A DNA stretch of 63,602 nt, filler included, from Lenisia limosa (GCA_001655205.1; 15 parts of 15 records of this genome joined end to end with filler, not necessarily neighbours in it), one strand, 5' to 3'; positions 3 through 62,343 are shown, numbered from the whole stretch's first letter. Translations and numbers: made by a program. Notes: a model not told the origin generated them from the sequence alone.

Positions 3-2597
3 CTGGCTGTCCGGCGTCAGGCTGGTGGGGGGGGGCTATGTAGATCATATACAGTGACCGGGAGAGGACTTGGCCAATTTTCTTCGGGAAATCCCAGACT
101 TATCCTGGTCACTGTATATCAAATCATGGGGGGAGGGGGGTAACGTATATTTTTTATCAAATATCATATCATGGGGGTGCAGGGAGTATATTATTCAGTC
201 GTCTCACCCCAGATTCACCCACTTCTTTCCTTCGTTTTACTCCACCCAGGACTAGCCTTAGCCGCCCTCTCTGCCCTCTCCCCTCGAACTGCCATAATTT
301 ATGTAGCCTACCACCTTATCCCGATTCTTGGTAGGCGGAGATATAGCTTTTATATAGGGTTCGAAAAAGACCGGCTAAATATCGATAGTTTTCGAGGGTT
401 TATCGAGAAATTCAGTCTTTTTTCGAACCAAAGTGAAGTCTCGACTATTATATCCAAAAGTTGTATTATGATAGATAGTTATTATCAAAAAAAATATGAA
501 ATGATTTGCTTTAATCATTATGCTCGCATACTTGGTCTATTTCTGTCAATCTCTTTGGTTTCTGGCTTGGTGCAAACTTTTTGTATTTAGAGTCGATATT
601 TTGGCTCTTGCACCAAGTATTTTGGCCCTTCTTTATTGAGCCTTTAAAGTCATGGAGCAGTGTTTCAGAATTATCAAGTGTTTATTCTTGCAATTCAAAC
701 AAAAATAATCGCAAAACTATAAACACAAATCAACCACCAATAATATTGAGTGGGCGCCAATTCTATTATTACCACCAGAGAAAAGAAAGAGAACAACACA
801 AAGAGCAAAAGCAGTACCTGCTGTTGTATTTGAGCCTGAGCGATCTGGTAAATAAACAAACATTCATTCACCTTGAGAGCATTAACAGCCCAAGCCCCCA
901 CATGTTATTAGTCTGATATTATTCACAGTCACAAATCACAAAGAGAAAGAACATCAACAAAGAATAGTACCACGGCGGCGGCGGTTTGGGGTTGAAGGAA
1001 AGAAGCTGGTCAAAGAAGGTCTGTCATGTCATCAGCCTTCGGAGACATGCCGGCGCAGAGGTCTGAAACATAAACAGATATTCACAAGCATAGAGAAAAG
1101 AGAGAAACTGCATCAAGAAAAGTACCGGTGGAGGGAAGGCTGCTGCTGCGGCGTTGGGGGCAAGAAGTCCGGCGTTCTGAAAAATAAACAGAAATGCACC
1201 ATGAGTTGGGCCGAATAAAAGGCATGATTGCCTGAAGGGCTGCATTCATCCAGCATGCGTTCCCTGAGGGGTAAAAAAAGTGAACGAAATATAGTCTTAT
1301 TTTCCACTTGGCCGTTTCTGCATCGTCGACAGCTGCTTGCTCCTTTTCCACTGGTTTCGGCCTCGCATCATTAAGGGAAAAAAGAGAAGAAAGAAACCAA
1401 TTCCTACCTTCATGAAGTGAAATTGTCTGGGATTCTATGTAATTATATAACTTGCTTTCTTTCGCTTTTTTTAAAGAAGATTTCGACAGTTTTCGAGAAT
1501 TTATTGAGAATTAAGTTTTTTTTTTTTTTTTGTAGCCCTAAAACCATCCCCGTTGAAAGTTGCTCCCATACATAATTTTGAACTTTCTTTGTTACCCAAA
1601 ACGAACGCCAATGTTCAGTGTTGAAGGGTCATGTCACCCCCACTTTTGCTTTCAGATTCACCCGCTCCCCTCCGCTCTTTAGTTTTTTTTCTGTTAATTT
1701 TCCATTTACAGAGTTGATTTGGGCTTTTTTTTTTTGTTTGTTTTCTAAATTTTCCCAATTTAACCCTCCCTCCTCCATCAGAGGATCCAAATTCCATTCC
1801 CCATCGCAGGGGAGCTTCTGCAGCTCTGGTGCACATTGTGAAGAGAATCGGCCTTTCTGTCCTGGCTTATACCCCCCTTGTTGCTCTCCCGCTACTTGCT
1901 CGTTCGGCCGATAATGTGGGGTAAATGAAGGAAATTTCGAGGGGACAATAAGGGGTACCACACCCTCCACCTTATTGTGGGCTTTGTGTTTCATAAATTT
2001 CCCAATTGTACTCCCCGCCCCCACTTACACCCCCAGGATATCCCGACAAGGCGCATGAGTTCGACTGGGTTCGCCGCCCTAGTGCAAGTCTTCCCATTGT
2101 GGGGGGGGGGGGNNNNNNNNNNNNNNNNNNNNNNNNNNNNNNNNNNNNNNNNNNNNNNNNNNNNNNNNNNNNNNNNNNNNNNNNNNNNNNNNNNNNNNNN
2201 NNNNNNNNNNNTACTTAACGAGAAGTCGACAACATGTAAATAGAATCACAGACACGGGTAGCATTATGATTGAAAGGTACAATATAAGAATAGTTCATTT
2301 CATTTACTGCGCTTATTTGCCCTTAATACAAGTCTTCCCATTGGAGGGGTATTTGGAAATTATGAAATATAAAAGAACTCAGTTGGCGGACAACACACGA
2401 GGGTCGATAACAACAAAACAAAGCCCAGGCCTATAGCAGTTTGTATTATGTTTTTGTTCTTGTGGGATAGGGTTCATTGTTTGCGTCCCTCTTTACCTGA
2501 AATAAAACTATCATTAAACACACTGCTGTTTAATGTTCTTTACACCCCCAGAGCAAAGAAGTCCGAAGATGCTATTCCCCTTCCAAACCAATTAATG
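3..2597 (+). CDS. BTAF1: Internal fragment of a BTAF1/Mot1-like HEAT-repeat SNF2 protein (multi-exon, partial)
   Basis: Phase-consistent exons 1782-1915, 2037-2098 and 2552-2597 give HRRGASAALVHIVKRIGLSVLAYTPLVALPLLARSADNDIPTRRMSSTGFAALVQVFPL, which resembles Mot1/BTAF1 (V.PVLGRMSD..D.VR...T..FA.L..L.PL). Exons 3-24 and 250-~300 (LAVRRQAGLALAALSAL) are on the same strand, but their link to the later exons is not proven. Confidence 0.65.
52..114. mobile_element. 63-bp hairpin MITE (family G), CAGTG terminus, TA flanks
   Basis: ta|cagtgaccggga...tcctggtcactg|ta. Other copies at 61400-61462 (also 63 bp, TA flanks) and 58479-58554; partial copies at 10011-10036 and 30023-30056. Confidence 0.8.
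650..1425 (-). other. Minus-strand spliced unit of uncertain coding status (nested gene or pseudogene)
   Basis: A series of T-rich GT...AG segments on the minus strand (e.g. gtactttt...gtttcag, gtactatt...atatcag, gtactgct...ataatag) separated by GC-rich exon-like blocks. I found no fully open spliced frame. One frame contains GNACWMNAALQAI. Confidence 0.35.
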
Positions 2598-2899
2598 GTT
2601 TGCCAGGGNNNNNNNNNNNNNNNNNNNNNNNNNNNNNNNNNNNNNNNNNNNNNNNNNNNNNNNNNNNNNNNNNNNNNNNNNNNNNNNNNNNNNNNNNNNN
2701 NNNNNNNNNNNNNNNNNNNNNNNNNNNNNNNNNNNNNACGTCCAACTTAAAATTTATCAATTAATTCCACAAACAATTTATTTTACTGGTATCCTTACAC
2801 CTTAGGCCCAATTAGAGAAGGATGGAGATTTCCTTGATCAGTTACTCGATACCTCCAAAGTGGGGAGGGAGGTTTTCATATTATTATTCATATTATTAT

Positions 2900-2900
2900 T

Positions 2901-2960
<60 letters not shown>

Positions 2961-2961: not shown

Positions 2962-3061
2962 NNNNNNNNNNNNNNNNNNNNNNNNNNNNNNNNNNNNNNN
3001 NNNNNTTAATTAATTAANNNNNNNNNNNNNNNNNNNNNNNNNNNNNNNNNNNNNNNNNNNN
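2962..3061. other. Artificial contig spacer N44-TTAATTAATTAA-N44 (first of 14)
   Basis: An identical 12-mer with stops in all six frames, embedded in N runs, at 3006, 13440, 17307, 19666, 21371, 29178, 31291, 33751, 39141, 42580, 44587, 56374, 58655 and 62543. Genes are truncated at these points. Confidence 0.97.
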
Positions 3062-3076: not shown

Positions 3077-5627
3077 GCCCAGTCTGTGTCAAGGATCAGG
3101 CGCATGAGAGATTGGCCACTGCCGTTGCTGCCCTCGTGAGAGACGAACTTGCAGCCAGAGCTGGCCAATTTGACGTGGGGGCTCTAGTGTTAAGCCGACA
3201 GAGCTTATATATTGGATTTTGTAGGATTTTTTTTTTTGTTTTGCATTCAAAATTTCTCTTCCTCGTATACGCTGGAGTGATAGGATGAGATGCGCAAAAG
3301 CGACAAGCCTGGTTTTGTTGTTATCAACCCTCGTGTGTTGTATAAGCCAACAGAGTTGATTCGGGCTTTTTTATTTCATAATTTTTCCAATTTTACTCCC
3401 CCCCCCCCNNNNNNNNNNNNNNNNNNNNNNNNNNNNNNNNNNNNNNNNNNNNNNNNNNNNNNNNNNNNNNNNNNNNNNNNNNNNNNNNNNNNNNNNNNNN
3501 NNNNNNNNNNNNNNNNNNNNNNNNNTCATTAGTCTCATCAAGCCCAAAAACGTGGGGGGTGGGGTAACTGTAACTCTCTTACATGGCGCAGAACGGACTT
3601 TTTTTATGACCTTTTCATAACTGTTTAGCTCCAAGGACATTACAACCTTCGCGTCCTGACTTCACGTGCACTTGAGATGATGAAGGTGTGTATCCTGCCC
3701 TATTATTACTCCTTCTGGGTCATAAACTTCAGGCTGACTAATATCAACATCAACTGTGTTTTTGATTCTCTTCTGTCCTCCTAGCATTAGCATTTTATTT
3801 CTATCCCTTCTGTGAAGACTTACTGTTGACAGTTTCTCTTTTCACACCCCCCGCAGGATAAGCCACATAGCTTCCACATTGAGACCGAGACTCTCGAGGG
3901 CAATGTCGTCTTCTTCTCAACAAATGTTTGTATGGATCTTGTTTTTTTTTTGTTTTTTTTTTCTCGAAATAGTGATATCATGTATTGTATTGTTCTCATT
4001 TCAATGACGATGCTATGCTGACTGCTGCCTTGAAAAAAAACTCTGTTGTTATACGAGTTATACGTTCATGTATATATGCTCGAGGTCCTAAACTATGTCG
4101 TTAATTCAATTTTCTGTGACTGTTTATATCAGAAATATATTACTGTTTTGAAGGGGAACAGCTGAATTGGCGACCGTAAATAATTAACGACATTAATTCA
4201 AATTAACGACATAATTTTGGACCTTGAGCATATGTATATTTTCAATAGTTATCTTTTACAACACCCTTCAGAACCTAAGACATAATGGTCACAATTTATA
4301 ATGTCTCTCACTTTTCAGCCCGAATTCCCGGTTCTTTGCTCACTTGGACGCTCATTAATTGGTATGTACTGCTCCCATCATTTGTTGATATTTGGCTTTT
4401 TTTTTNNNNNNNNNNNNNNNNNNNNNNNNNNNNNNNNNNNNNNNNNNNNNNNNNNNNNNNNNNNNNNNNNNNNNNNNNNNNNNNNNNNNNNNNNNNNNNN
4501 NNNNNNNNNNNNNNNNNNNNNNNNNNNNNNNNNNNNNNNNNNNNNNNNNNNNNNNNNNNNNNNNNNNNNNNNNNNNNNNNNNNNNNNNNNNNNNNNNNNN
4601 NNNNNNNNNNNNNNNNNNNNNNNNNNNNNNNNNNNNNNNNGCTGACTGCCTCGGGTATCTACTGCTGTCTGAGCCAGAGCCAGGCAAGACGCGACAGCAG
4701 CGAGGCTCTCCATGTCTTTGAGGTATGCCAAATATGGTAATAACCACTTACCTTATCAGGATGTCATAGATCTGCCAAATATGGTATAACCCACTTACCT
4801 TATTAGGATGTGAAGTCCATGCTCCTGTCCAAGCAGCTGACACAGCCTTCCAACGCCTTCATTGTCCCTGAGCACCTTCGTGACACGTTCTTTGTCCCCC
4901 TCTGCAGACCTCAGCATAAGGCCAAAATCTGGGACCTTGTAGGGCGGTAAAAATATATAAATAAAAACATTAATGTATCATCGGTAATGTAACACCAATA
5001 TCAGATGCATGAAGCAAGGAATAACCCGCTTCAGGTTGAACAGATGGTCAATGCCGACGAGAGGGTCGCTAAGGTTCCACGCTTCCTCAACGGCCTTGAA
5101 GTTGACACCTGGGAGGTGGGGGGGTATGTTTCTGTTGTACATATATGCCTAGTCTCCTGACACGTGCAGTGGAAGGACAGTGCCAACTCGCATCCGAGCC
5201 CCGAAATGACGAGGGCGTATCCTGTCACGCCGCACCCTGCTGCCGGCACCGCCCACTTCAAGGTCTGTTGCTAGGGTTCTGCGTATGCTGTAATGATTGA
5301 CATAAGGCTGTAGAGTTTTGTTCCATCTGGTGGTTGAAAAAGACTGGATCGCTATTGAGAATATTGAACTTCTCAAATTTTTGCTCACCCCACAGCCCCA
5401 CAATCATCTAGAAGACACACCACCCCTGCGGCCGGCCATGCGCTTTGAAAAGCCTGCCTTTGCCGTCCCCATTCCTGAGCTGACGCCCCAGATAGACAGG
5501 ACGCGCCACTACCCTGTGAGGAAATATTTCACCCATCGTTTGACTCGGAATTTGGTGTAACGTTGCACTGACGTTCCAGGCCCCTGAAGCTCGTGTGCCC
5601 CGTGCTGGCCTTTACCCCAAAATGTAG
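3077..5627 (+). CDS. Src1/Man1-family inner nuclear membrane protein, C-terminal MSC domain (5' truncated)
   Basis: Spliced product includes GPVCVKDQAHERLATAVAALVRDELAARAGQFD, FIVPEHLRDTFF, AKIWDLVEQMVNADERVAKVPRFLNGLEVDTWEWKD (the MSC W..V..D.R....I.G....WEW signature) and ends GLYPKM* at 5625-5627. Confidence 0.8.
3265..3408 (+). mobile_element. Family B splice-site-anchored intronic repeat (representative copy)
   Basis: Consensus tacgctggagtgatgggatgc..gaagcgactggcctgggc..ttgttatcaaccctcgtgtgttgtcagccaacagagttgatttgggc..tttgtttcataaattttccaattttactcccc(n). Copies or fragments near 1706, 1977, 2343, 19207, 30870, 31740, 33808, 35705, 37575, 43455, 58090, 60990-61225 and 62060. Confidence 0.9.
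4077..4230. mobile_element. 154-bp MITE with ~30-bp TIRs inside a Src1 intron
   Basis: Left tgctcgaggtcctaaactatgtcgttaatt and right aattaacgacataattttggaccttgagca are inverted repeats, with TA on both flanks. Confidence 0.8.
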
Positions 5628-7776: not shown

Positions 7777-10224
7777 ATGGAAGACCTTTTATCCAGTGGA
7801 GTTTCAGTTCTTGATGGTGGTGGTGCATGGCAGGTTGGTGAAGGTCAGAATACATGATTTCTTGATTTATGTCATGGAACTATCAATGGGTTGTCCTAGG
7901 TGTAACTTATTATGATATAATATCTGCACATGAAGTATACAATCCTATTTGGTATTGAGGTTTTTCGTAGCTGGAGCAACAAGGGGTGCGGCTTTCTTCA
8001 GTTCTTTGGTCATCAGCTGCTGTGATCGGTAGGAGTTTAGATAAAATCACACCAGGGTGTTCATAAGAACAAGTTCTCCAAGTCTTTTCCTTTCTTATTC
8101 TCACAATACCATTTCACATGAAAGAGACTCCCGAAGAAGTGGAGGCTGTTCACTCCTCTTTCGTATCATCCGGAGCGGATATCATTCTGACAATGACATA
8201 CCAGGCTTCAAATCAGGTTGGGTAATCTCTTTCATTAATCTGCGACTTATTAGTTATTAAATATGGCAAAGATGATAGAGGGAAAACACTTCCTGAAGAT
8301 TGGCAGCCCTAATAAGTTCTGACCCCCCAATGTTTCTGACCCCCTAAGACGTACAGAAAAGTCTTTGGAAATTGTCTGTCTGAATCATTTGAGGAGTTTA
8401 TCCGAAATGCCGTACAGCTGGCCAGAAAGGCAGCATCAAAAGTACATGGGAATATCACTGGTAAAGTAGTGATATTTTTTAATATCGGGAAACTCACTCT
8501 TTTTGAATCGTGAAGCTCTACGTATTATAAAACACGAATGTTTTTTAACTATTCTTTGAATCAATATCAGTACGGAATTGGGAAGTTCTAAATTCAGCAG
8601 AGCTCGCGGAATGTCTTTGTTGGAGGAAGTGTTGGACCTTACGGGGCTGGTTTACAAGGGGGCGCTGAGTACTCTGGTGAATACCGCTTGAGTCAGGTGA
8701 GAGAATAAAGCCAATATAAAGGTAATATTACAGATATGATATGAGGTACATCGTATTGATGTCCGTTTGAAATTGTTAAAACTTTGATACTCCTATTGTT
8801 GTGACCCTCCAGATAGAATACCAGGAATATCATCGTCCTTTGGTCACCGCGCTGATTCAGTCAAATGTCGACTTTTTGGCTTTTGAAACTCTACCTCGAA
8901 GTGATGAGGCTCTTGGTAGGTTGAAGGGTTACAACCGCTCTGTGGTTCATTTTTGATACTATCGATTTTAATTTTCAGCGATTAAATAATGTGTGGGTTT
9001 AGTTTATGACTGAAATAAGTCACAAATAGTACTATGGTAGGGATTCATCGACTTGAAAGTCAAGTATCAGGCAATAGTAGTGAATGTTGAATTGACAATG
9101 TGACCATCTTAGCTTTGGTATCACTCTTGACGAAGGAATTTCCTGGAAAGAAGGTTTGACAATACCCATTTTCTCCTTCAACAATTGATAACTCTGATCG
9201 AATTGAATTGACTCTATTTTTTGAGAAATTGATCCCTTTAGTGTTGGATTTCCTTTTCTTGTAACTCTACCCGGACTATTAATAATGGCACTGATTTAGC
9301 TGAAGCTGTGAAATTTATACAGGTTGGAATGTTAAGATGATTGAAAACGTGTAATGTATAAAAGAATACGTTTTCCTTCTCATACAGAAATCCGCTTTTG
9401 GTCACAGGCGATGGCCAATCCTGTTGTCTATCCATCCGCTTTGTTCCATAAAACACTAAACCAAAACAAAAGTTGAGAATTCATGAGGATAAGTACTTAT
9501 TTATTCTCCTAAGCCTCCAGGATTATGACTGTGTTCTTGGCATCGGGGTCAACTGCACTAAACCTATGGTTGGTTCCTGATCAAATGTAGAGCCTCCGCG
9601 ATTCATTAAAGCCAATGTGTTGATTAATTTTAGTTTGTCAGCGACATTTTGAAGACAATGAGGAGGTATACCAAGAAGCCCCTCATTTGCTACCCTGATT
9701 TGGTATGTCAAGGAATACGAACGGTGTGTCGGTGGTGGCAATAGAAAAGTTCACGGGGGGTAAGGCAACTGTTTTGGGTGAATTGATGATTATGACATTT
9801 GTCCATGTCATTTCTACCATTAACAGCATAGGGATGGAAATGGAAAGATGGAAAATGGGACAAGTCCTCGGGTAACGAGTCGTCCTTCTTACAACAGGCC
9901 AAAGAATGGGCCAAATATGCTGCTGTAATTGGCGGATGGTGGGGGGGAACCGAAAGTCAGAATTTCTGTGATTGGTTGGATAAACTCTTGTTATTTACTA
10001 TACTCTGCATAGTGACCGGATAAGGCTTGACCTATTGCACCATCACGCTTACAAGAGATACTGAGTTACATTGTATTTTCTTGTGTTTCGCCCATCGAAG
10101 GGGTAGAGGGTTTTTGGGCAGCAGAAGGCACTTTCTGTATTTCCAGGAATGTAACCATTCCAGTTGCACTGTTGGACCCGGAACTATCCAGAAATTGGCA
10201 AAACAAGTCCATGAAGCGGACTGA
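7777..10224 (+). CDS. mmuM: Homocysteine S-methyltransferase (MmuM/HMT family), complete multi-exon gene
   Basis: MEDLLSSGVSVLDGG, LWSSAAV, GADIILTMTYQAS, VGGSVGPYGAGLQGGAEYSGEY, LAFETLP, CWISFSC, GIGVNC, PLICYPD, and IGGCC spanning the last intron; TGA at 10222-10224. Confidence 0.95.
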
Positions 10225-16964: not shown

Positions 16965-18559
16965 GTTGGGGGGGGGGGANNNNNNNNNNNNNNNNNNNNN
17001 NNNNNNNNNNNNNNNNAAACAAAAAACAAGCAATAACAAACACGAGCAACCAACGCTAAAACTAGGGGGGGGGCTCCACTCCGAAAAAGACTGGTAGAAT
17101 ATCGATATTTATCGAGGATTTATCGACATATTTAGTCTTTTCTGGGCCGAAGGGAAGCTCTGGAGGAGTATGACACAACTGGGGAATTGAGGAGCAAAGT
17201 CCCCGACAATTCATGATAATATCACCCAGGGGTGTCACCAAAAGTGCTGTTTTGACCGTTCANNNNNNNNNNNNNNNNNNNNNNNNNNNNNNNNNNNNNN
17301 NNNNNNTTAATTAATTAANNNNNNNNNNNNNNNNNNNNNNNNNNNNNNNNNNNNNNNNNNNNGTTTTGTTTTTAATACCACTTTTTCACAATTTTCTTTT
17401 AAATGCAGACGCTGCCACCCCTTTTAGATGAGCCATTTATTTAATTTAACCGTATAGACCCCTCTCGCCCGTCCGCAGCATCCTCAGTCCATTCTCTCCA
17501 ATTACGAAGACTCTTTTTTACAACAGTCAATATCGAAATCGTATGTGGAACCTGGGTTTTTATTATTATTATTATTATTTCATTTTATTGTATTTGTATT
17601 TCATTTTATTTTGTGAGGCAAGGGGGGGGGGGGNNNNNNNNNNNNNNNNNNNNNNNNNNNNNNNNNNNNNNNNNNNNNNNNNNNNNNNNNNNNNNNNNNN
17701 NNNNNNNNNNNNNNNNNNNNNNNNNNNNNNNNNNNNNNNNNNNNNNNNNNNNNNNNNNNNNNNNNNNNNNNNNNNNNNNNNNNNNNNNNNNNNNNNNNNN
17801 NNNNNNNNNNNNNNNNNNNNNNNNNNNNNNNNNNNNNNNNNNNNNNNNNNNNNNNTGCCGTGTCACGTGACTGCAGCCGATTCTCCCGCCCCTCACTCCC
17901 ATCTTTACCTGACCAATCCTCGCTGTCTATAGCAACGTTGATTGGTGTTCCAATATCTGAGCTTCGCTGATTCATCCAGGGTTTACATGGGAGTATAAGA
18001 TATTAAATTGGGTGTATGGTTGCAATGGGCATTGGTGGATAGAATGGCAGATAGGCTCAATAAACCTCTGGCGTCAGGGTGAAATTGGAATTCCCTTTTA
18101 GAATCCGAATTTTGTGCTGTTTTAGGATATTTGTTCGGTAGACTAAAAGACCGCTTAACAGTGAGATTGGTTTGGAACAATTGATGTGGATAGCTAATTT
18201 GAAAGGAAATTCTGGTGCAGGACCATTTTCTAGAACTGCTTTACTACACTGAATTAATAATATGCGTGGGCTGCTTTGGCGAAAGTTTTTTTTTTGCCCT
18301 AGTACTTCCCAGAGTCATATGGCACCCCACGTCAACGACCGACCAAATGTGAGGCAGAACAGGTTACACCCCCTTCCCTAACAATCAGGTAAATTCATTA
18401 ATTCAGATAAACTGACCATGATAAGTCCTTTGACAGGATATAGCTCAACATTCGTGTCAGTCAGTGAATATTGTACCCATTATTCAACAGTTCAGATATA
18501 TTGTACAAATAACCATTACGAGTACCTCACATTTACAGCCACGCCTTCACAGCCTCAAT

Positions 18560-18781: not shown

Positions 18782-19136
18782 ACTGACAAAATTGAACATC
18801 CCCCATCAAAGCGAATTTATTATCTGTTGTTTTTGCGTATCAACTGGCATCAATTGGCCACATTTGCGTTGACTAATTGCGAATTGGATGAAGGACCAGA
18901 CCAGAATCCTAAGTGGGATTTTTGGGCCTTAAGTCGGAGTTGAGTCCAAAAATCCTAATCTTGGGTTGGAAATTGAAAACGATTTTAGAAACAACTTCCT
19001 TTTTGGGCAAGTTTGATTCAACTTAACATAAAGGAGCAAATTCTCAACTGTGTCTTCATTGAAATTTCCTTCGTTTTACTCCCCCCCCCCCNNNNNNNNN
19101 NNNNNNNNNNNNNNNNNNNNNNNNNNNNNNNNNNNN

Positions 19137-19590
19137 TGGACTTCAGAGCAGCCGCCACCGCGGCTTGGACTTTCACATCAATATCGTCAACTTGGACTAA
19201 AAGAACCTGGGGAGTAAAATTGGAGGAGTTATGAAACAAAAAGAGCCCAAAATCAACTCTGTTGGCTGACAACACACGAGGGTTGATAACAACAAGAAAA
19301 TAGACAATTTAATGAAACACGAATCGTGTCAGGATTTAGGTCACTGTGTCCTACCCCTACCCTACCTTAAAAGTGTTCTTCAAGGTGGCCGAAATGCTGA
19401 CACCTGACACATTGGTGACGTCCTCATTATCATCACCAAAAACGCCTGTTTTCATAGGAAGGCCCATTGGGCCCAACGGGCGAGCTGTTTTCTCAGGAAT
19501 TACGGGGACATCATCGACTCCGCCTGCAGCCGTCAGAGTGAGGAGTGCTTTCATGCGGTCTTGGAGAATAGTGCAGCTGAGGACTCGAAT
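19137..19590 (-). CDS. Exons of a probable HEAT/ARM-repeat protein (weak resemblance to the DNAAF5 C-terminus)
   Basis: IRVLSCTILQDRMKALLTLTAAGG...SATLKNTFK spliced in phase 0 to VLLVQVDDIDVKVQAAVAAALKS, a HEAT-like LL..LDD.D..VQ.A...AL pattern. Confidence 0.5.
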
Positions 19591-29465: not shown

Positions 29466-31245
29466 CCCTCCAATTATATGTATGATATCGTAATAACCCA
29501 CGGGCAATGATGACGTCAAGAAGTTCTACAACTGCCGCAAAGAGACTAGGGTTCGGAATCTGAGGGGGGGGGGGGGGNNNNNNNNNNNNNNNNNNNNNNN
29601 NNNNNNNNNNNNNNNNNNNNNNNNNNNNNNNNNNNNNNNNNNNNNNNNNNNNNNNNNNNNTCACGAACCGAATAATCTGAAGTTTGAATATGTGGTGGAG
29701 AAAGGTAGGGGGTTAAAGTAGCGCAATAGAATAGTAGTAACAATAAATATGGCAAACAAACAAACAAAACAATATAATAAATAATTATAATAAAAACCCA
29801 GATTGTGGGTAACGAACCTGCAGAAGAGAGGCCACGACCCAAAACAGCGAAGCATTGAGCTTGGAGGTGGGAGAGAGACTTGCCTGGGGAGGGAGTGAAA
29901 AAAATGTAATAGTTCATCTCATACTACATAAGATATTTATAATTATTTTACATATATACACTTGTATTACATATTAAAAATTATGTTACATATCATATTA
30001 AAATAGTATCATTTAACATGATTTCCCAAGGAAAATCGGTCATACCCCGGTCATCGTATATCATATAGCTATGCTATGATACAGTATCCACCCCCCCCCC
30101 CCCCNNNNNNNNNNNNNNNNNNNNNNNNNNNNNNNNNNNNNNNNNNNNNNNNNNNNNNNNNNNNNNNNNNNNNNNNNNNNNNNNNNNNNNNNNNNNNNNN
30201 NNNNNNNNNNNNNNNNNNNNNNNNNNNNNNNNNNNNNNNNNNNNNNNNNNNNNNNNNNNNNNNNNNNNNNNNNNNNNNNNNNNNNNNNNNNNNNNNNNNN
30301 NNNNNNNNNNNNNNNTGATATATAATATGCATATTACCATATCATAAAAATATGCCATGTATTTATTTGTTTCCCTAGATATCTATGTATATTTTTCTCT
30401 TGTTTCAAAAAAATCATATAATATAACCAACCTTGTCCAAGGGCCCCAAGAACAACAAAGGCTCTGGTGTGTAGTGTAGTTTGCCGTCCAAAGGCTGCAA
30501 CCGCCGCTAAACTACACCAAGTTAATTAATGGGAAAAGGGACAAGACGTCCCCGTGGACGCGTGAAGTATAAACCCAACCTCCCAAAAAAAAAATAATAA
30601 TAATAAAAAAAATAATAATAAAACAATAGTCAAAAAATAGTGAAACAATTGCAAAAACAGTATCTTACCCCACCTCTGCCAGTTTCTCAGCCATTTGTTA
30701 TATTGGTCCCTGGAGTAGAGGGGCTCAAGCGCACTCATAAACTCCAGAAGCAACTTTGTGACTGGTAGGATTCTGGGGGGGGGGGGGGGAAANNNNNNNN
30801 NNNNNNNNNNNNNNNNNNNNNNNNNNNNNNNNNNNNNNNNNNNNNNNNNNNNNNNNNNNNNNNNNNNNNGCTGACAACACACGAGGGCTGATAACAACAA
30901 AACAAACAAAGTCCAGGCCAGTCGCTTCTGTAGCATCGCATCCCATTACTCCAGCGTACGTACAATGGGAAGGTTTATGAATCCATTTTATGATCGAATG
31001 CTTCACTTCGGTTCGAAAAAAACCAGGAAAATATTGTTAGTTTTCTAGGATTTATCGAGAATTTCAGTCTTTTTTTGAACTGAACTGAAGCCCTAGTTAC
31101 CCCTCAACCTTCTCAAGTCAAAAGGGTCACCCTCGCGGGTCATGATACGCTTATAGTCCTGTCCAAAAGAGACGGGGTACGCGGCGGCGTTGGAGGAAGT
31201 TACCCCGAAGAGCAACAGGGTACCCGGACGTGAGGCCTCGGCTAT
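29466..31245 (-). CDS. NF1: Neurofibromin-like RasGAP, internal C-terminal-domain exons
   Basis: LLLFGVTSSNAAA, KWLRNWQR, TLHTRAFVVLGAL, ASLSPTSKLNASLFWVVASLLQIPNPSLFAAVVELLD, versus remembered NF1 segments KWLDQW, LQPRALVVFGCI and [27 protein letters not shown]. Confidence 0.8.
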
Positions 31246-31358: not shown

Positions 31359-32105
31359 CTGAAGCGTGTTCCTGCCCAACAGCGTTGTCCAAGTTGGTGT
31401 TTGGATTTTTGCTGATACTATTGTATCCGTAACCGGTTAGGAATACTCTCTAAATAAACGTAATGCAATTGAGAAAAGCATGATAAATCATTGTTGAGTT
31501 AAAAACAAATTCAACGCATTCACTGAAATTACCGAGAGAGAGGCAATGTTGTCAATTAAAAACAGGGGGGGAAATTAATAAATAGGGTAGTAGGCCAGTC
31601 CCATCTTACCACCGTTTCAGTACCATAGTCAACGCCCAACGCTCCTGTGCAAAGTAGCTCTCCGTTTACGTAGACATCTGGGGAATGTGAGGAAAACAGT
31701 GAAAAGGCCAGAATTTTTCGCCAATTCAGATTGCGGTTCTTGGGAGAGAAAAATTGCAACAACAAAGCCCAAATCAATTCTGTTGGTTGACAATACACGA
31801 GGGTTGATAACAACAACAAAAAAAAAAGCCAGGGCCATTCGCTTCTGCAGCATTGCATCCCATCACTCCAGCGTACTTANNNNNNNNNNNNNNNNNNNNN
31901 NNNNNNNNNNNNNNNNNNNNNNNNNNNNNNNNNNNNNNNNNNNNNNNNNNNNNNNNNNNNTTCTCGATAGATATTCGATTAATATCGATATTTTACAGGT
32001 CTTTTTTTGACTGTAGGGAATTCCTATCGTTACCTACCAGTAGAAGTCGCCCCAAGAACATAGACAAAGTGGCTCAGTTTAGTTTCGTCCAGAGTAACTG
32101 TGGAA
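31359..32105 (-). CDS. Exons of an unknown protein (beta-rich)
   Basis: Exons with canonical junctions, e.g. DVYVNGELLCTGALGVDYGTETV and LISTVTLDETKLSHFVYVLG. Confidence 0.45.
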
Positions 32106-33706: not shown

Positions 33707-34015
33707 NNNNNNNNNNNNNNNNNNNNNNNNNNNNNNNNNNNNNNNNNNNNTTAATTAATTAANNNNNNNNNNNNNNNNNNNNNNNNNNNNNNNNNNNNNN
33801 NNNNNNACTGCATCCCATCACTCCAGCGCGGGGGGGATTGAGATGACGAATATTGGTGTAACGGTACTTATCACAAATTAAATAAGGGGAATAATATTAT
33901 TCATGACAAATTTGAAAGCACTTGATTCCCTGCAAATTTGAGAAAACAAAATCAACCCCCCCCCCGCTCCCATTTTTCATCGAAATATCCTTCTATTCAC
34001 CCCTCCCCTGCTCAC

Positions 34016-37000
34016 GGCCTGATTTTGCGTTGAGTGAGTAGAAAATTGACGGTAATCCTGCAACTACGGGTCCACTTATGAGTCCTGCGGGGGGGGGGGG
34101 NNNNNNNNNNNNNNNNNNNNNNNNNNNNNNNNNNNNNNNNNNNNNNNNNNNNNNNNNNNNNNNNNNNNNNNNNNNNNNNNNNNNNNNNNNNNNNNNNNCC
34201 AAGACGGGAGTGAAATGAAGGAAATTTCGATGAAAAATGAGAGCAGGAAGTGCGGCGGCGGGAGGGGTATATTGATCCCTAGCTCTTGTTAATCCCAAGA
34301 TAGTATTTATATTGAATGGGGTACCTTGTTTCCAAAATTTGGCTTCCCTTCGGTCCGAAAAAGACCGTGAAATGCTCGATATTTTAAGAGGGATTTTCGA
34401 GTTTTTTTATATGTCTTTTTTGGGACCGAAGGGGCGCCCTGCTCCCACATCATTAGTATCCTGATTATCTTTGTTTCAATAGAGACTTTGCTCTTTAATC
34501 CTCATTAGAGACTTTACTCTTTATGATCTTAGTTTCAAAAGAGACCTTTATGATCCTAGTTTCAATAGAGACTTTATCTTTGAATCCTAGTTTCAAAAGC
34601 GACTTATCCCACTCACCTGCCGTTGTAGATATGATAAGGTCTTGGGGAGGAGGCTGTTTTCGGCTGCAAAGGAGCGTGAAAGGGGGAAATATATGGGGGA
34701 AAAAGGGGGGGAAAGGTGAAGAGAAATTCACAGGAAAATCTATGAAATCAAAAAGCCTATCCATAGATTGTATTTTGCTCCACAATGATATATATTGCTT
34801 ACTTTATCGCTGAGAAAAGCGGGAGAAGAGCGGAGGAAGACTTGCATGACGTCTGAATTTGGTAAATAGGGGGGGGGGGGGGGAANNNNNNNNNNNNNNN
34901 NNNNNNNNNNNNNNNNNNNNNNNNNNNNNNNNNNNNNNNNNNNNNNNNNNNNNNNNNNNNNNNNNNNNNNNNNNNNNNNNNNNNNNNNNNNNNNNNNNNN
35001 NNNNNNNNNNNNNNNNNNNNNNNNNNNNNNNNNNNNNNNNNNNNNNNNNNNNNNNNNNNNNNNNNNNNNNCCTCACCATTATTACAACATTATTATCATC
35101 TAATCCCCTCACCCATTAACTACATATAGAATATGATATCAAATGTAGTGTATATAACTCCCCCGCGTACCAAGAGCAGCACGTTCGGGTCATGATGTAG
35201 TAAAACATGGGCCAATGGGGGGCAACTTGAGAGGGGCGGCTGGCCTGCTTTGATGCTCAAATACTTTGGCAACACTGGGGGAGTAAAACGAAGGAAATTT
35301 CCATGAAGAATATTGGCGTAAAGGTACTAATTACGAACCTAATAATTTGAAACTCCAAACAAACTCCAAACAAACAAAAAACAAGTAATAACAAATACGT
35401 GCAACCAACGCTAAAACTAGAAAAAAAAACATATGACAAAAATACAAAAACAAAGACAAGTCCGAGCCAGCCTTTGAAGAGTTCCACCACCGCTCGAGGA
35501 AGAGAGTAAAAATGGAACATTAGGACCTAGCAGTAGCCCTCCCCCCTCCCACCATCAATATGGTCCGTCACGAGCACGGCAGTAGCCAGGCCAAGACTGC
35601 GACAAAGCAATACGCCAGCATGGCACGCAACACGCGCAAATCGCACCCATTTATCCCGGCCTGGGGGAGGATTATACCTTTTATAGAAAAAAAAAGAGGG
35701 GGGGGGGGGAGTACAATTGGAAAATTTATGAAACAAAAAAACTTAAATCAACTCTGTTGATTGACAACACATGAGGACAACAAAAAAAACAAAGCCCAGG
35801 TCAGTCACTTCTGCAGCCCCGCATCACACTCCAGCGTACGTAAAACGAAGGAATTTTCGATGAAGAAAGGGAAAAACAACAACAAAAGAAAGTATTTTAT
35901 GAAACTAAGAAGCCCAAAACCAGTGTTGTTTGTGGAATGTAGGTTGACTGATCAAATTTCGATATTTATCGAGAATTCATCGAGAAAGTCTTTTTTTGGG
36001 ACCGAAGGGAAGCCCGTACATGTAATTATACAATGTCATTGACCGCTTTTTCTTAAAAAAAAAATCAATGCGCATATCTGTCAAGACTACCACCACAGTG
36101 TCATCCAACCCCTATGTATTTATTTGTGATTTTTTTTTTTTGAAGAATTAAATGTATTCTCTTATTCACCCCCACCCCCCACTTTCAGCTTTGCCACTGT
36201 TCCATGATGACTGAACCAATGAACACGCTCGTCTTACATTCTGCCCTGTTAAACTCTTGGGAAAAACAAGGACCGAAACAATGGGGTCAAGGGGGGAGGC
36301 AAGAAAGAGAATTAAGGAAAGAGAAGAGAAAAAAGAGAGAAGAGAAAGACAAGACAAGACAAGACAAGAAGATAAATGAAGCAATGAATAAAACAACAAA
36401 AGAGTGACGGAAACAAACAGGAGATAGGAGGCATTAACATGAACTACAAAAGTACAACATTAGTAATACTCATCTAAACCCTTTCTATGATTAGCGCTTC
36501 ACTTTAACTTGCAAAAAAGACTGCCGTGTTTTTGTTATAACCATTTAAGACATGTTAAATATCAAGACTTATCAAGACTTATCAAGGTATCTCTTTATCA
36601 TTAACCCAGTTATTCCACCCAACATCCCTTTTGACTGGTACCCTCCTCCCAATTTCCTTTCCCTCTCTTTAAATAGGATAATCCCCCCGACATTTGCAGT
36701 ACCGTCCGCTACGGTATCAAGGGCGTCTGGTACGGAACTGGGCCAACGATGTGATAGGGCCTGGGTGGGGGGTGGCGGGTAAAACGAAGGAAATATCAAT
36801 GAAGAATATTGGCGTAAATTGACAATTTTATGAAACAAAAAAAGTAAATAATAGCAACTAAAAATTCCACAGTATTCACATTTATTCAGTAATAAAACAA
36901 CAACAACAACAACAACAAAAAAAAAAACTATGTATAATAATATATTTGTGTATGTAAATGTGTCACATAACTTTTTGTACAATACCAAAGAAATTGATCA

Positions 37001-39078
37001 GATTGTAATCTTCTAACGGTCCGAGAAAGAATCGATATTTAAAGAATATTTACAGAGGAATTGTCACCGTATTGCCAGCAGACCGACCAATGAGAGATTT
37101 TGGTGTCTGGTATCCCTATATTTGTTCAGATTGTACATATATGATATCAGATCACTTTTTGGATTATTATCACCGGTCATATGATCATATCACTAGTGGA
37201 TATGGTTAACATAATTATTGTCTTGCTAACTAAATGCCCGCACACCGATGAGAGGTTTTGACGGGCTATACGCACAGCCGGTTGGAGAATGGGGTGCTGC
37301 GGTAATTAAAAAGAAGAACCTATGAAACACTTTCTCCAAATAAATAAAAACCATTGAGGGGATACGCCGTACCCTCCCCCTCCCCCTTACTAAAATATCA
37401 TCATATACCAGCAAAATACACCCCTGACATAGTACCACAATACACCCATATCCCCACACACAACACCCATGCCCCCACCTGGCATGAAACAGCATTTGCC
37501 CCGAGGTCCAACATAGCCTCGAACAAGTCCTTCAAAGAAGACATGGACGTGAGGGTTGAGCTGTGATTTGTAAGGGGGGGGGGGGGGTAAAATTGGAAAA
37601 TTTNNNNNNNNNNNNNNNNNNNNNNNNNNNNNNNNNNNNNNNNNNNNNNNNNNNNNNNNNNNNNNNNNNNNNNNNNNNNNNNNNNNNNNNNNNNNNNNNN
37701 NNNNNNNNNNNNNNNNNNNNNNNNNNNNNNNNNNNNNNNNNNNNNNNNNNNNNNNNNNNNNNNNNNNNNNNNNNNNNNNNNNNNNNNNNNNNNNNNNNNN
37801 NNNNNNNAATTACGAACCGAATAATCTGAAATGTCAAACAAAAACAAAAAAACAAGCAATATCAAACACGAACAACCACGCTAAAACTAAACGGGGGTGA
37901 TTGGTCGAATGTGTATACTTTGATATGACCCATAGACATTAAGACAGAAAGTGTATGATATGATCTATCATTGACACAATATACAATACGATGTCTCCAA
38001 ATTTGGAAGTAATCTGACGATTGTATTTTTGTCCCAGTATTACACCCACAGAGTCTAGATAACAGCGTGGTCTTTCCCGATTGTGGCGGTCCTAAGTGGT
38101 AAAAAAGTACACGATAAAAAAAACCAAGAAAAAAAAAGAAAAAAAAAACGTTTTTTCAATGCTTGTGTGGACCCCCTACCCAACACCCGCTATAANNNNN
38201 NNNNNNNNNNNNNNNNNNNNNNNNNNNNNNNNNNNNNNNNNNNNNNNNNNNNNNNNNNNNNNNNNNNNNNNNNNNNNNNNNNNNNNNNNNNNNNNNNNNN
38301 NNNNNNNNNNNNNNNNNNNNNNNNNNNNNNNNNNNNNNNNNNNNNNTTCAGCAAGATACAACCTTATTTTTTATTTCTCATTGCTATACATATATAACAA
38401 GAATACCCCCCACCCCCCGCATACCAATTATAACATGACGCCTTGAAGACAGGGTTGGCTGGCCACTGCTTCCATAAGCCCTGGAAAATGTGACTATATG
38501 ATACCCCATGTATTTGTTTTTAAATTGTATTGTTCAAAAAAGAGACAATTTGGTGAACCCTCCCTATCACCCCCGCACCGGGCCTGTTCCAAGGCCTTAG
38601 CAGCCACGTCGTCCAAACTGTCGGAGTAAAACGGCTGGGGGCACGCGGTGAGGCCTTCCTGGATTGTGGCCNNNNNNNNNNNNNNNNNNNNNNNNNNNNN
38701 NNNNNNNNNNNNNNNNNNNNNNNNNNNNNNNNNNNNNNNNNNNNNNNNNNNNNNNNNNNNNNNNNNNNNNNNNNNNNNNNNNNNNNNNNNNNNNNNNNNN
38801 NNNNNNNNNNNNNNNNNNNNNNNNNNNNNNNNNNNNNNNNNNNNNNNNNNNNNNNNNNNNAAGGTTGAATTTATCGATAAATTTCAACCCCTTAGTACAA
38901 GCTCTTTATAGATATGATTTATCGAGGGTTTATGGAGGGTTTATCGAGGATTTATCGATTAATAACACACCCCTAGCCCCCAATCATACATGAAGGGCAT
39001 TCTGGGTTGCCTGCTGTTTTTGGAGGAGTTTTAGGCGGACGTTTGTTGGCTGGCTGCCCCATGCTTCCTTCCATGCAA
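34016..39078 (-). CDS. P-loop NTPase, possibly STAND/NACHT-like (multi-exon fragment)
   Basis: Walker A assembled across a phase-1 intron, RRHVIIG|PPQSGKTTLLSRL (exon starting at 38091), and a Walker B-like AVLVTDHID|AVVELF near 35540. Confidence 0.7.
34466..34610 (+). repeat. Degenerate intronic tandem repeat (~27-30 bp unit atcctagtttcaatagagacttt)
   Basis: About five imperfect units with no unique spacers. Confidence 0.65.
35277..35421 (-). mobile_element. Family D splice-site-anchored intronic repeat (representative copy)
   Basis: On the host-gene strand: ctagttttagcgttggttgc..tttcaaattattaggttcgtaattagtacctttacgccaatattcttcatggaaatttccttcgttttactccccc, followed directly by AG. Other copies or fragments near 225, 1918, 17017, 19060, 29661, 33975, 34205, 35840, 36775, 37808 and 61130. 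Confidence 0.88.
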
Positions 39079-43432: not shown

Positions 43433-43600
43433 TACATATATGTATATATGTTATCAATCGTCGTGTGTTGTCAGCCAACTGAGTTGATTTGGGTTTTTTG
43501 TTTCATAAATTTTCCAATTTCACTCCCCCTTGGAACTCGAGCTTCTTTACGTTGGAACTCTTTCCTTTTTTTTTTGTTTTTTCTCCATTTCACCGCGTAG

Positions 43601-54366: not shown

Positions 54367-54849
54367 GTATGATTACGTGTATTTCGGGTGCTCATGGTTT
54401 CTAAAAATCAAGTTTATGTTGTTTTTGCTCTTTAGAGCTGAGACTGTTTCAGTAGTTTCTTGATTATATTTCAGTAGGTTCTTCTGTGGATGGAAATTAT
54501 TATTATGAGACTTCATCTTTATCAACTAATTTACATTGTATCAGATCATAGATTCGAGCTTAATTCATTCAAATAATAACCCATTTGTGTGGATGAAACC
54601 ATGGAAAGATTTCTAATGATTCCTAACTATTCTCTTCTAGATGATGGATCCACCCTGTTATTGGAATTGATGTAAAAAATACAATGCATATTCAGAAGAC
54701 TATCACATAAAGAAGATAGTTTGATTTGTGCCACCAGTTCTGGCAATATTCCTTATAGAGTAATCCACGGCACAGCGCACAACTACTTATGGAAGGTACC
54801 AGTTGAGATCGCCGCTCTTTGTGCCAGGTAATTCAACATTAACCTGACG

Positions 54850-58083: not shown

Positions 58084-58726
58084 CTGGAAGGGGGGGAGAG
58101 GAGTAAAATTGGAAAACTTATGAAACAATAATAAAAAAATCAACTCTGTTGGCTGACAACAAAAGAGGCTTGAAACAACANNNNNNNNNNNNNNNNNNNN
58201 NNNNNNNNNNNNNNNNNNNNNNNNNNNNNNNNNNNNNNNNNNNNNNNNNNNNNNNNNNNNNNNNNNNNNNNNNNNNNNNNNNNNNNNNNNNNNNNNNNNN
58301 NNNNNNNNNNNNNNNNNNNNNNNNNNNNNNNNNNNNNNNNNNNNNNNNNNNNNNNNNNNNNNNNNNNNNNNNNNNNNNNNNNNNNNNNNNNNNNNNNNNN
58401 NNNNNNNNNNNNNNAAGCAACCAGATTGGTTAAACATTGGAGAAACATCCTTCTCAATTTGTTTTACGTAGTAACATACGGTGACCAGGATAGTCTTAAT
58501 TGATTTTCCTTGGGAAATCAAATTGCAAATCGGTCAAGACTTATCCTGTTACTGTGTATTTGTTCTTTTTTCTAAAATCAAATCAAATAGACCCCCCCCC
58601 CCCCAAAGGTNNNNNNNNNNNNNNNNNNNNNNNNNNNNNNNNNNNNNNNNNNNNTTAATTAATTAANNNNNNNNNNNNNNNNNNNNNNNNNNNNNNNNNN
58701 NNNNNNNNNNCCCCCCCCCCCCTCAG

Positions 58727-61700
58727 TCTTGTTGCCCAGCCCGTGTCGGAGCCGTCGGAACCGGTGGAGCCTTCGAGGCTGTCTGATGATGAGTCCGACC
58801 GCGTAGCTAATGTGCGTCTTGGCTGGGGTGTTTATACGTTGCTTTTCTGGATCTGAACAGTTTCTATTTTCCAATTAATTGAACAATACCAACATGGTAA
58901 AAAAAAATCATTTGATATGGCCCGAACTAGCATTTCAAGTATTGATTATCTAATATTTGGAATAGATACATATTCATGTACATGGTGTTATTATAAAGCT
59001 GTGTTGTTATTCCCCTCCAGCGCAAGAAGCCATCAAGCCGTCGGCAGCGCAGAGCCGTCTCTTCCGACGACGACTCTTCCGACGCTCCCACCAAGCCCGC
59101 CACCATCGTCCAACGCTACGATAATATTGATCCGACGGTCCTCTCTGAGCTGCCGCCTGAAATCCAGGCCGAGTGCATGACGCGTAAACTCCGCCCACGC
59201 CCCGCGCGCAATGAGCTCACCAGTGATGACGAGTTCATACCCTCCGGACCATTGACAATGATTTCATCGTCACGGCCTGTGCGCAAAAGCAAGCGCTCGC
59301 GCAAGCCCTTGGCGCGAATGACTGAAACGTTTTTCCGGTCTCACAGTACCCGACAGGCAAGTGAAAGGGCAACAGAACGCCTGCACGATATTGACATGGA
59401 TATAGGCCCCCAGGACAAGGTCGCCTATACCTGGACCGCTACCAAACCCAAATCCGATAATAAGCCGCCAAGGAAGTCAAGTCCAATCTCAATCCCCCCC
59501 ATGTCGAGTAAGAAGAACTACCCCGCACCGGGCCTTCCGATGCCTTCCGACGCTTCCGCTTCCGCTTCAGCTTCCGACCTGATGGCCACACCCGCCTTCA
59601 CGCCAGCGTCGTCTTTGTCGTCAACCGGTGGCATGCCCAGGTGGGGGGGGGGGGGTNNNNNNNNNNNNNNNNNNNNNNNNNNNNNNNNNNNNNNNNNNNN
59701 NNNNNNNNNNNNNNNNNNNNNNNNNNNNNNNNNNNNNNNNATAGTATACTGACCTTCAGGACTCTTCATGGGGCAATTGCAACAGCCAGTCGAAGCCGAA
59801 GCCATTCTCTTGGTATGCCTGCGGTATTGGTTTTTTTCAGAAGCACGGTTGATCTGGACTGCTTTCTCATCCTTCTTTCTTTTCTTTTTCCTTCTCTTCT
59901 TTGTTTTCTTGTTTTCTTCGTTCTTTTTTCTTCCTCTCTTCTTTCTTCCTCTCCTCTCTTAGGTGTGTACCTGTTTGATTATTGACTCTAATCCAATAAA
60001 AGAGTGATGGAGTGAACAGTTTGGCCAATATACCCTTCTCTGATTAATATTTCAACACATTCCAATATAATGACTTTTTGCGCTCTTTGACAAATTCGAT
60101 CTCACACACAGGGTCGGATGTGGCGCATGCATTGGATGTGGAATCGCGCAAACGGGACACCCAGAGGGAAATCCAGAACCTGGCTCGGAATATGACCACG
60201 TGGGGAGGAGGTACAGTGTAGTTTCTAGGGTGGCGGAATTTCAATTCCTCGAATTGTTGACACAGCAGGGACGAATTTGACATCTTTGGGAGTGCAATGA
60301 ACACCTCTCCTATGACGTCACCATTCTTCACGGGGTGGGGGNNNNNNNNNNNNNNNNNNNNNNNNNNNNNNNNNNNNNNNNNNNNNNNNNNNNNNNNNNN
60401 NNNNNNNNNNNNNNNNNNNNNNNNNNNNNNACAAGAAAATATCTTAAATAAATAAGGGAAACATAAGAATACAAATGATATCATAAACAAATCACCATAA
60501 ATAGTGTGGGGGCGCGCCTTCCCCTTCAAGAATATGATACGTCTTGAATTATCAAATATGCCGCTGCCACTTACCATCACAGCACAGTCTTGTTTCAATC
60601 CGTATGTTTCTCAANNNNNNNNNNNNNNNNNNNNNNNNNNNNNNNNNNNNNNNNNNNNNNNNNNNNNNNNNNNNNNNNNNNNNNNNNNNNNNNNNNNNNN
60701 NNNNNNNNNNNNNNNNNNNNNNNNNNNNNNNNNNNNNNNNNTTTGAAGACATTAATTGACAAAATTTGACATTAAAGTTGAAAATAGATCTCACTTCAAA
60801 TTTTCTCAATTAATTTTTAATGAATAAGGCACCCACCTGAGTGTTTTACCCTGCAGGCTGACACTACAATCGCCGTCCTTCCTACCCATGCAGATCGACG
60901 ACCATATGGGAATCCTGCCAACTACAGGTGCGTTCTGTTGCTCCTTAAACATCAAAGATATTGATCTCAGGGTTTTCAAAGCTGTTTGTTTTTGTTTCAT
61001 AAATTTTCCAATTTTACGAAGTGACTGGCCTGGGCTTTTGTTTTGTTGTTATCAATCCTTGTGTGTTGTGTTGTCAGCCAACAGTGTTGATTTGGGCATT
61101 TTTGTTTCATACATTTTCCAATTGTACTAGCTTTACGCCAATATTCTTCAAAATTTTCTTTTTCAACAGAGTTGATTTGGGTTTTTTTTGTTTCATAAAT
61201 TTTCCAACTTTACCCCCCCCCCCCCNNNNNNNNNNNNNNNNNNNNNNNNNNNNNNNNNNNNNNNNNNNNNNNNNNNNNNNNNNNNNNNNNNNNNNNNNNN
61301 NNNNNNNNNNNNNNNNNNNNNNNNNNNNNNNNNNNNNNNNNNNNNNNNNNNNNNNNNNNNNNNNNNNNNNNNNNNNNNNNNNNGTTCTGATATAATATAC
61401 AGTGGCCGGGATAACTTTTGACCTATTTTCCTTGGGAATCGGTCAAACTTATCCGACCACAGTACATACAGATATTAATGGGTTTACATCTCATGGGCAA
61501 CTTATCACAGTTATAGTTACAGGAGAATACGTTCTTATTTTATTGCTATTTTGACAATAAAAAAGGACATTAACTAAAATTTTACGATAAAAAAAGACAA
61601 TATGGGGATGCACATTTCTTTGCCCAGTGTCCTCCTATATTTCACCTCCCCCAGACTCCATGGAACACCCCACAATGCCGTCGGCTCCATTGCACCATCA

Positions 61701-62343
61701 ACAACTCCCCGCACAACNNNNNNNNNNNNNNNNNNNNNNNNNNNNNNNNNNNNNNNNNNNNNNNNNNNNNNNNNNNNNNNNNNNNNNNNNNNNNNNNNNN
61801 NNNNNNNNNNNNNNNCGGCCCGACCTCACCAAAACCTCCCGCCACCTCTTGCAGCCCGTCACGGTCGGCAGCATCTCATTCCGATGCCGAGACGTCCCCT
61901 AGTTCGGCCAGCCCGGACCTGATTGATGACGGAGACAGCTCAGCCTCAATGTCGGATAGGCCTGTGGCGCGCACACGAACTACGGCGCGAACTATTACCA
62001 GTGGTGAGGGGTGCGCTTTGTTTCTCTTCTAGGGCTTCACTTCGGTTCGAAAAAGACCAGTTGCAGAAGCGACTGACCTGGGCGTTGATTGATCAACAGA
62101 GTTGACTTGGGCTTTTTTGTTTTATTAAATTTTCCAATTTTACTCACCCCCCCCCCCAGNNNNNNNNNNNNNNNNNNNNNNNNNNNNNNNNNNNNNNNNN
62201 NNNNNNNNNNNNNNNNNNNNNNNNNNNNNNNNNNNNNNNNNNNNNNNNNNNNNNNNNNNNNNNNNNNNCCGCTCAAACCCTCGCCGATCCATGATCTGTT
62301 CGGCCAGCAGAAGAGTGAACCGAACTCCCCGGCCCGGCCTGAA
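58727..62343 (+). CDS. Ser/Pro-rich low-complexity protein with a ubiquitin-binding motif (UBM-like); may be more than one gene
   Basis: The long exon 59021-59640 contains NIDPTVLSELPPEIQAE (UBM pattern .D..VL..LP..I..E). Plus-strand exons continue to 62343; an alternative stop at 59983-59985 is possible. Confidence 0.6.

Follow-up and report, generated by a model that had tools for sequence, protein, structure and literature searches.

Two families of short repeats, here called B and D, have been characterized in a stretch of 63,602 nucleotides (nt) of DNA from Lenisia limosa (GCA_001655205.1), hereafter the window. They are real, high-copy, orientation-locked repeat families, linked to the homopolymer tracts of intron ends. 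We give roughly an even chance to the view that they are mobile but non-autonomous, their 3' end being attached to C-tracts already present, probably via target-primed reverse transcription.

Structure and orientation of the B and D repeats

Three main repeat families were recovered in the window by self-BLAST and profiles: A, a palindromic miniature inverted-repeat transposable element (MITE), B and D. B and D are short, non-coding, dispersed and high-copy. B measures about 135 nt, and fits the 130-150 nt that a first-pass annotation of this DNA had assigned to both; D reaches at least about 220 nt (35277-35497), as contig depth in a DNA run (X1, single-copy depth 17.9) drops from 14,252 to 52 at 35497. 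The 3' ends of the two families are formed by a similar 24-nt motif terminating in TAC. A matrix built from the last 24-25 nt of the families found 18 ends scoring at least 15 in the window, against a mean of 0.8 and a maximum of 2 in 40 shuffles. The end is shared, as had been claimed, but is degenerate, since the strict pattern first written for it is exact at only 2 places. Pairwise identity among B copies ranges from 66 to 88% (median 80%, 33 pairs). Full-length B carries the terminal motif at one end only; its ends pair over just 7 bp, imperfectly, and terminal inverted repeats of the MITE kind are not seen.

Most copies are short 3' fragments. In the window copies and in the X1 contigs alike, the 3' boundary is fixed at TAC and the 5' boundaries are many and different. 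Long unlike flanks follow the 3' end of B in 211+91+105 (407) X1 contigs, and the 3' end of D in 92 DNA contigs. As a contig is not a locus, and as the assembly itself may derive from X1, the counts are read as hundreds of copies at least of B and D in the Lenisia genome. At least five C are found within the next 12 nt at 13 of the 18 strong ends, and four of the other five abut another B/D module. C-runs are missing at head-to-tail junctions, and are likewise present in introns devoid of B and D.

The 26 copies tabulated for the analysis (coordinates in Table 1) are all intronic, in a window that is intron-dense; two weak profile matches (34715-34759, 46887-46930) were left out. RNA gave the host strand in 4 of the 26 rows, and open frames gave it in the other 22. 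Relative to the host gene, 21 copies are sense and 5 antisense. When the 3' end is visible and no more than about 30 nt away from a splice site, sense copies lie at acceptors (9 cases) and antisense copies at donors (2 cases), with none in the opposite arrangement (Fisher p=0.018); adding five cases interrupted by gaps, the counts become 12/0/0/4 (p=0.0005). The polarity first claimed is upheld by these figures. Inverted copies right after the donor were confirmed at 1921..1945 and 33956..34011, but one antisense B, at 2340-2437, is found in mid-intron. Among the 12 sense copies for which both end and acceptor are visible, AG follows within 28 nt in 9, close to the 0-25 nt announced, and after 52, 79 and 127 nt in 3; several sense copies thus sit 50-130 nt from the acceptor. 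Some sites cited earlier are less informative, as the element end is hidden in N at 17017, 29560 and 30777, and at 34088 the D end and the acceptor are kept apart by 98 N. Several of the early coordinates were off by one: the acceptor G residues are 249, 1781, 2036 and 62159, and the donor is 1916. The D copies at 34202..34250 and 33956..34011 are mutually inverted across one exon. In the intron 1916-2036 a 9-bp inverted repeat lies between the donor-side inverted D end and the acceptor-side B end; this intron resembles two opposed insertions or one fold-back event.

Use of two of the adjacent splice sites, on which the early claim depended, was confirmed by one contig (contig 8) of an RNA run (X2). 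It contains pieces 34016-34083, 34803-34852 and 35171-35275, a 48-letter interval matching exon 34617-34663, and loose letters from 35554 on; junctions were deduced from the boundaries of the pieces, not from a listing of joints. The pieces give an open frame through five exons, in which acceptor 35275, 6 nt behind D, and donor 34015, which faces the inverted D end, are both used. Stretches of 33807-39096 that lack RNA cover are uninformative on the use of their splice sites.

Table 1. Positions of B and D copies, of one unidentified insert and of genes named by Pfam in the window
Feature	Position (strand)	Splice site or remark
D 3' fragment, sense	226..240 (+)	acceptor AG 248-249 with motif A at -11; strand of host from open frame
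B 3' fragment, sense, behind B-end-like stretch	1708..1764 (+)	acceptor AG 1780-1781
D 3' fragment, antisense	1921..1945 (-)	directly after donor GT 1916-1917
B 3' fragment, sense	1976..2011 (+)	acceptor AG 2035-2036; separate YTNAC at -10 persists
Unidentified G-tract-first insert, 99 N inside	2085..2343 (-)	flanked by 15-bp direct repeat (2085-2099, 2329-2343) including exon end
B copy, antisense, mid-intron	2340..2437 (-)	about 250 nt from donor; adjoins duplicated exon end
Full-length B, sense, C11, behind D-end-like stretch	3268..3408 (+)	acceptor within N gap
D 5' part, antisense	17017..17062 (-)	follows donor 16965; 3' end hidden by N gap; 5' flank carries C9
D 3' fragment with C11, antisense to minus-strand gene	19053..19091 (+)	donor within 45-N gap
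5'-truncated B, sense	19209..19307 (-)	acceptor AG 19208-19207, motif A at -9
D internal fragment, sense	29661..29699 (-)	end in 83-N gap, then C14 and acceptor 29560
B end fused directly to B start, sense	30870..30983 (-)	remainder in 77-N gap before acceptor 30773
B without terminal motif, sense	31746..31881 (-)	about 70 nt upstream of acceptor having its own tract
D tail (degenerate), C7 and a B start interrupted by the end of the scaffold, sense	33807..33885 (-)	
D 3' fragment between C10 and C-rich run, antisense	33956..34011 (+)	15 nt after RNA-supported donor 34015
D 3' fragment, sense	34202..34250 (-)	127 nt (98 N) upstream of RNA-supported acceptor 34085
Longest D (about 220 nt), sense, behind B-end-like stretch	35277..35497 (-)	acceptor AG 35276-35275, RNA-used; motif A at -10
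D end fused directly to full-length B with C12, sense	35698..35867 (-)	acceptor 35661, 52 nt off, separate tract
B-end variant fused to D tail, sense	36767..36836 (-)	acceptor 36761
D 5' part (37808-37899), 204-N gap, B end with C14, sense	37574..37899 (-)	acceptor 37561, separate YTNAC at -11
5'-truncated B, sense	43441..43529 (+)	acceptor 43600 lies 79 nt downstream; exon start duplicated (11 bp) behind the copy
B 3' part, sense	58086..58178 (-)	acceptor 58084
Head-to-tail stack, sense: B end, truncated B, D tail, truncated B with C13	60987..61225 (+)	
Truncated B behind half of a family A MITE, sense	62059..62157 (+)	acceptor AG 62158-62159; later YTNAC at -14
Homocysteine S-methyltransferase gene	8067-8953 (+)	Pfam
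Vps33/Sec1 gene	13593-15415 (-)	Pfam
Ankyrin repeat protein gene	22492-23548 (+)	Pfam

Host intron ends and splice signals

Introns free of B and D and of N were taken as a control (59 introns, 8 of them transcript-supported and 51 predicted ab initio with a frame-based model that has no term for tracts). Runs of at least three in the first 20 nt past GT are of G in 21 cases and of C in 3, and those in the last 20 nt before AG are of C in 19 and of G in 2 (p=1e-7); for runs of four, the figures are 8/1 at the donor and 6/1 at the acceptor (p=0.009). Introns without elements are G-first and C-last, and therefore the host polarity pre-exists B and D. Tract density differs by gene, G4 donors being 7 of 18 in the gene at 47800-54500 and 0 of 11 in the ankyrin gene. 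The motif YTNAC was found in the last 32 nt of 26 control introns (shuffle mean 14.8, 0 of 500 shuffles as high), its A lying at -9 or -10 in 14 of the matches. YTNAC, which the B/D end resembles, is likely the branch-point motif of the host. The donor consensus is weak, with G at +5 in 39 of 59. The 5' and 3' ends of a same intron pair no more strongly than ends drawn from different introns (-5.94 vs -6.07, p=0.58).

The idea that the elements build the branch point along with the tract fits a minority of the copies. In 3 of the 12 sense copies (those at 19207, 35275 and 249) the A of the element lies at -9, -10 or -11, with no space for a second motif. In 4 a separate YTNAC is found downstream, at -9 to -14; in the remaining 5, where a later YTNAC is not visible, the A of the element is at -19, -20, -21, -52 or -127. 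On motif spacing, the B/D end plausibly supplies the predicted branch point or splice signal in a minority of introns. Likewise, the homopolymer tail of antisense Alu elements can serve as a pyrimidine tract.

None of the 26 copies reaches both splice boundaries, the donor ends of introns hosting B or D are unrelated, and X1 depth over the donor end of the intron 35275-35552 falls to single copy. Since no copy spans a whole intron, B and D are not introners, and the intron creation initially considered is unsupported.

Proposed insertion at tracts and its alternatives

Signs of the target are found on the 5' side. A run of at least four C is found within 25 nt in 8 of 23 visible 5' flanks, against a background of 6.2% (p=4e-5), and about 9 further flanks, counted by eye, follow another B/D end. 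The consensus of 105 X1 contigs beyond the 5' part of B is a T-run and then a C-run before B (agreement only 0.51). In X1 contig joints, a B/D end is followed within 0-15 nt by another B or D, whose start varies widely among internal positions; the stacks seen in the window (30960, 35840, 36813 and 60987-61225) match this pattern. Family A was examined as a control, as had been suggested, and a C4/G4 run adjoins its copies in 2 of 15 cases. Homopolymer tracts, one of the two targets first proposed, are the option favoured by the data, given the C-runs on the 5' side and the G-first, C-last organization of introns lacking B and D.

The fixed orientation at intron-end tracts is likely due to the insertion of B and D at such runs, whose host polarity they inherit: if the 3' end is joined to the C-strand of the tract, any such element will be sense at acceptors and antisense at donors, and orientation would flip automatically between the two. 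The G-rich strand of the tract would be cut, and would prime the copying of an element RNA ending in C residues, carried out by a reverse transcriptase encoded elsewhere that would recognize the end common to B and D. As the element end resembles the host YTNAC and C-tract, insertion there would usually keep splicing intact; the A of the element would sometimes act as branch point, and selection against splicing-breaking insertions probably sharpens the pattern.

Several observations weigh against insertion at tracts by reverse transcription. In five of the 23 5' flanks that are visible there is no C-rich sequence, and no B/D end either. No target-site duplication (TSD) in unique sequence was found around any identified B/D copy; the sole 15-bp duplication encloses the unidentified G-first insert, for which it is a possible TSD. 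Neither a transfer RNA (tRNA) nor an Rfam head was found: Rfam gave no match to B or D at E<=1, and one weak match, to family A, and the tRNA search was negative; an RNA polymerase III (Pol III) head derived from tRNA, 5S or 7SL is not seen on B and D. Transposase, reverse transcriptase and Rep domains were absent from the 403 scanned of about 449 open reading frame (ORF) pieces of at least 50 amino acids (aa) in the window. A possible 5' motif common to B and D, the start of D being visible in one DNA contig only, suits DNA elements better. The C-run that follows the B/D end may be part of the element or part of the target. Finally, of the 59 control introns, 51 were predicted ab initio, and these predictions contain visible errors.

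B and D have been compared with known systems on the basis of partial texts of the cited sources. Site-specific retrotransposons of the non-LTR (long terminal repeat) type have a precise boundary on the 3' side and a varied one on the 5' side, whether or not a TSD is formed (PMC4640811). B and D are short, non-coding, dispersed at high copy and have a fixed 3' end and variable 5' truncation, features that they share with short interspersed elements (SINEs) and other non-autonomous non-LTR elements. They are like R2, Utopia, the microsatellite-targeting elements and their non-autonomous partners in the precise 3' end and varied 5' end, and also in the fixed orientation at a repeated target, tandem insertion and optional TSD (PMC4640811). 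The targets listed in the available part of that source are different, namely ribosomal RNA, tRNA and small nuclear RNA genes, spliced-leader exons, transposons, microsatellites and telomeric repeats. In addition, B and D lack a partner enzyme in the scanned ORF pieces and a Pol III head.

Elements of the HUH type insert in a specific orientation without TSD (PMC10288648). A single-strand DNA (rolling-circle) route with the same targeting, in which B and D would be non-autonomous Replitron-, Helitron- or IS91-like elements set in fixed orientation at TAC plus pyrimidines, is unlikely. It would account for the blunt head-to-tail junctions without TSD (30960, 35840), for the TAC/GTAC found at both ends of B, 3-4 nt only, and for the possible common 5' motif. 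According to the portion of PMC10288648 available, Replitron-1 shows orientation-specific insertion and short direct terminal repeats, which B may share, and carries right-end flanks along; in Replitrons non-autonomous copies outnumber autonomous ones. Unlike these elements, B and D are heavily 5'-truncated, lack a linked Rep protein, no Rep domain being found in the scanned ORF pieces, and have no detected terminal hairpin: the folding of one D and two B copies is not above that of shuffles (z-scores 0.64, -0.15 and -1.43). Junctions are C-T, C-G or C-C, not the A-T or T-T of Helitrons. The retro route is favoured over the HUH route, though the data do not separate the two.

That the elements insert without sequence preference, and that near splice sites only the copies with a C-tail matching the host grammar survive, is improbable. 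Purifying selection shapes the orientation of transposable elements (TEs) near mammalian exons (PMC3088655, in the part available), and the intronic location of all 26 tabulated copies is in line with a filter. Such a filter fails to explain the C-runs in 5' flanks, the stacking behind older ends, the enrichment at boundaries instead of depletion, and the paucity of tracts next to family A. The first assumption, that ordinary intronic SINEs lack such positional polarity, goes too far. Mammalian intronic TEs do have an orientation bias near exons, similar at donors and acceptors, and are depleted there; as in Alu and other SINEs, repeat orientation depends on exon proximity (same source, in part). 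B and D differ from them, being concentrated at boundaries and flipping orientation between donor and acceptor, which remains unusual.

A little less probable again is the capture of repeats by break repair, fragile long G/C tracts being patched with pieces of abundant repeats via C/G microhomology or template switching, with no dedicated machinery. The chimeric B/D stacks with microhomology junctions (36813, 61127) could so arise, and short exon-end duplications are found at splice sites without B or D as well (50266/50295, 4726-4806). The highly constant TAC 3' end, seen in two families and at hundreds of junctions, suggests instead a recognized end.

It is very unlikely that the elements create introns in the manner of introners, singly or as two opposed insertions supplying both ends. 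The intron 1916-2036, which has an inverted D end on its donor side and a B end on its acceptor side, looks like a case in point, and D makes up about 220 nt of the RNA-supported intron 35275-35552, which measures 278 nt. However, in the former a YTNAC and a tract of the intron's own remain downstream of B, and the donor end of the latter is single-copy in X1. B and D resemble introners as high-copy intronic repeats at a splice boundary, able to carry a splice signal, but their similarity extends to one boundary only, whereas introners are defined by touching both (PMC9860276, PMC12130899, as far as the available texts go).

Beyond insertion at tracts as such, B and D could target the 3' splice signal of the host itself, YTNAC plus C-tract, and rebuild it with their own end, so that splice signals would be a safe harbour throughout the genome. 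The G-first and C-last intron ends would have been built or extended by successive waves of such elements, and paired opposite insertions may occasionally make introns. We hold this extended view to be rather unlikely.

Other features and meaning of the repeats

The window is made of 15 parts joined by filler; L. limosa belongs to the Breviatea. Scaffold linkers (e.g. 2962-3061, 13396-13495) consist of 44 N, a 12-letter all-frame stop and 44 N. They join unrelated scaffolds, because the gene for Vps33 stops at a linker and its remaining 165 aa are not found in the window. Many N gaps are located at G or C runs, and therefore the window is probably enriched in tract-rich sequences, and some element ends are hidden. 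A transcript-derived Vps33 protein of L. limosa maps letter for letter over 258 aa, with 8 GT-AG introns; exon 13602-13733 is among those covered. The gene at 47970-54400 (+) has no Pfam match and is presumably asparagine-synthetase-like, from motifs in its gene model. On the first scaffold, possible minus-strand exons at about 800-1420 fall between the ends of its plus-strand gene. Two other window exons gave no match in protein searches, and a search for representative sequences yielded nothing but an unspliced ORF call, made on this same DNA and carrying no information on splicing.

Family A measures about 95 nt and has about 15 copies, not tied to tracts (353-440, 16651-16742, 30999-31097, 40715-40815 and 11 more). 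Short terminal inverted repeats mark another small, MITE-like family, at 48-119, 58478-58560 and 61395-61468. The sequence at 38347-38388 is another high-copy repeat (summed X1 depth about 93,000), with a look-alike near 29425-29470. An element of about 935 bp with 34-bp terminal inverted repeats (20004-20939) and a second longer repeat shared by 19722-19849 and 42974-43342 have no Pfam match. Repeats of at least 14 bp are 6 in the window against 0 in 10 shuffles, several being unrelated to splice sites. Short duplications of exon ends or starts within the neighbouring intron (11-15 bp, one of about 47 bp) are found at 2085/2329, 43532/43600, 50266/50295, 4726-4806 and 41010/41301; they may be TSDs or repair scars. 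The reading of B and D as structured non-coding RNA was dropped, as they fold no better than shuffles. Searching metagenome contigs for the exact pattern of B, and viral contigs for that of D, gave 0 matches each; neither a related locus nor a homologue of the genes hosting the copies was found.

A search of the literature on the Lenisia genome and introns, introners, SINE orientation, C-tailed or target-specific elements and protist branch points found no description of B and D, though a genome paper or its supplements could still hold one. Lenisia is unnamed in the main texts of PMC9860276 and PMC12130899 and in 12 of the 14 supplementary files of the latter. According to the available parts of these two sources, introner surveys filter out secondary insertions into existing introns. 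One-boundary insertions are thus discarded by design, and elements such as B and D may therefore be overlooked. If only tract targeting were true, they would be an unusual yet understandable transposon family. The choice of target, absent from the lists of site-specific elements as far as the sources at hand go, would turn thousands of single-copy intron ends into one repeated target, and the element end mimics the branch-point and tract signal. The data also give a first view of the intron grammar of a breviate, with a G-run past the donor, YTNAC at -9/-10 and a C-run before the acceptor. B and D would offer a testable example of a mobile element acting back on core splice signals.

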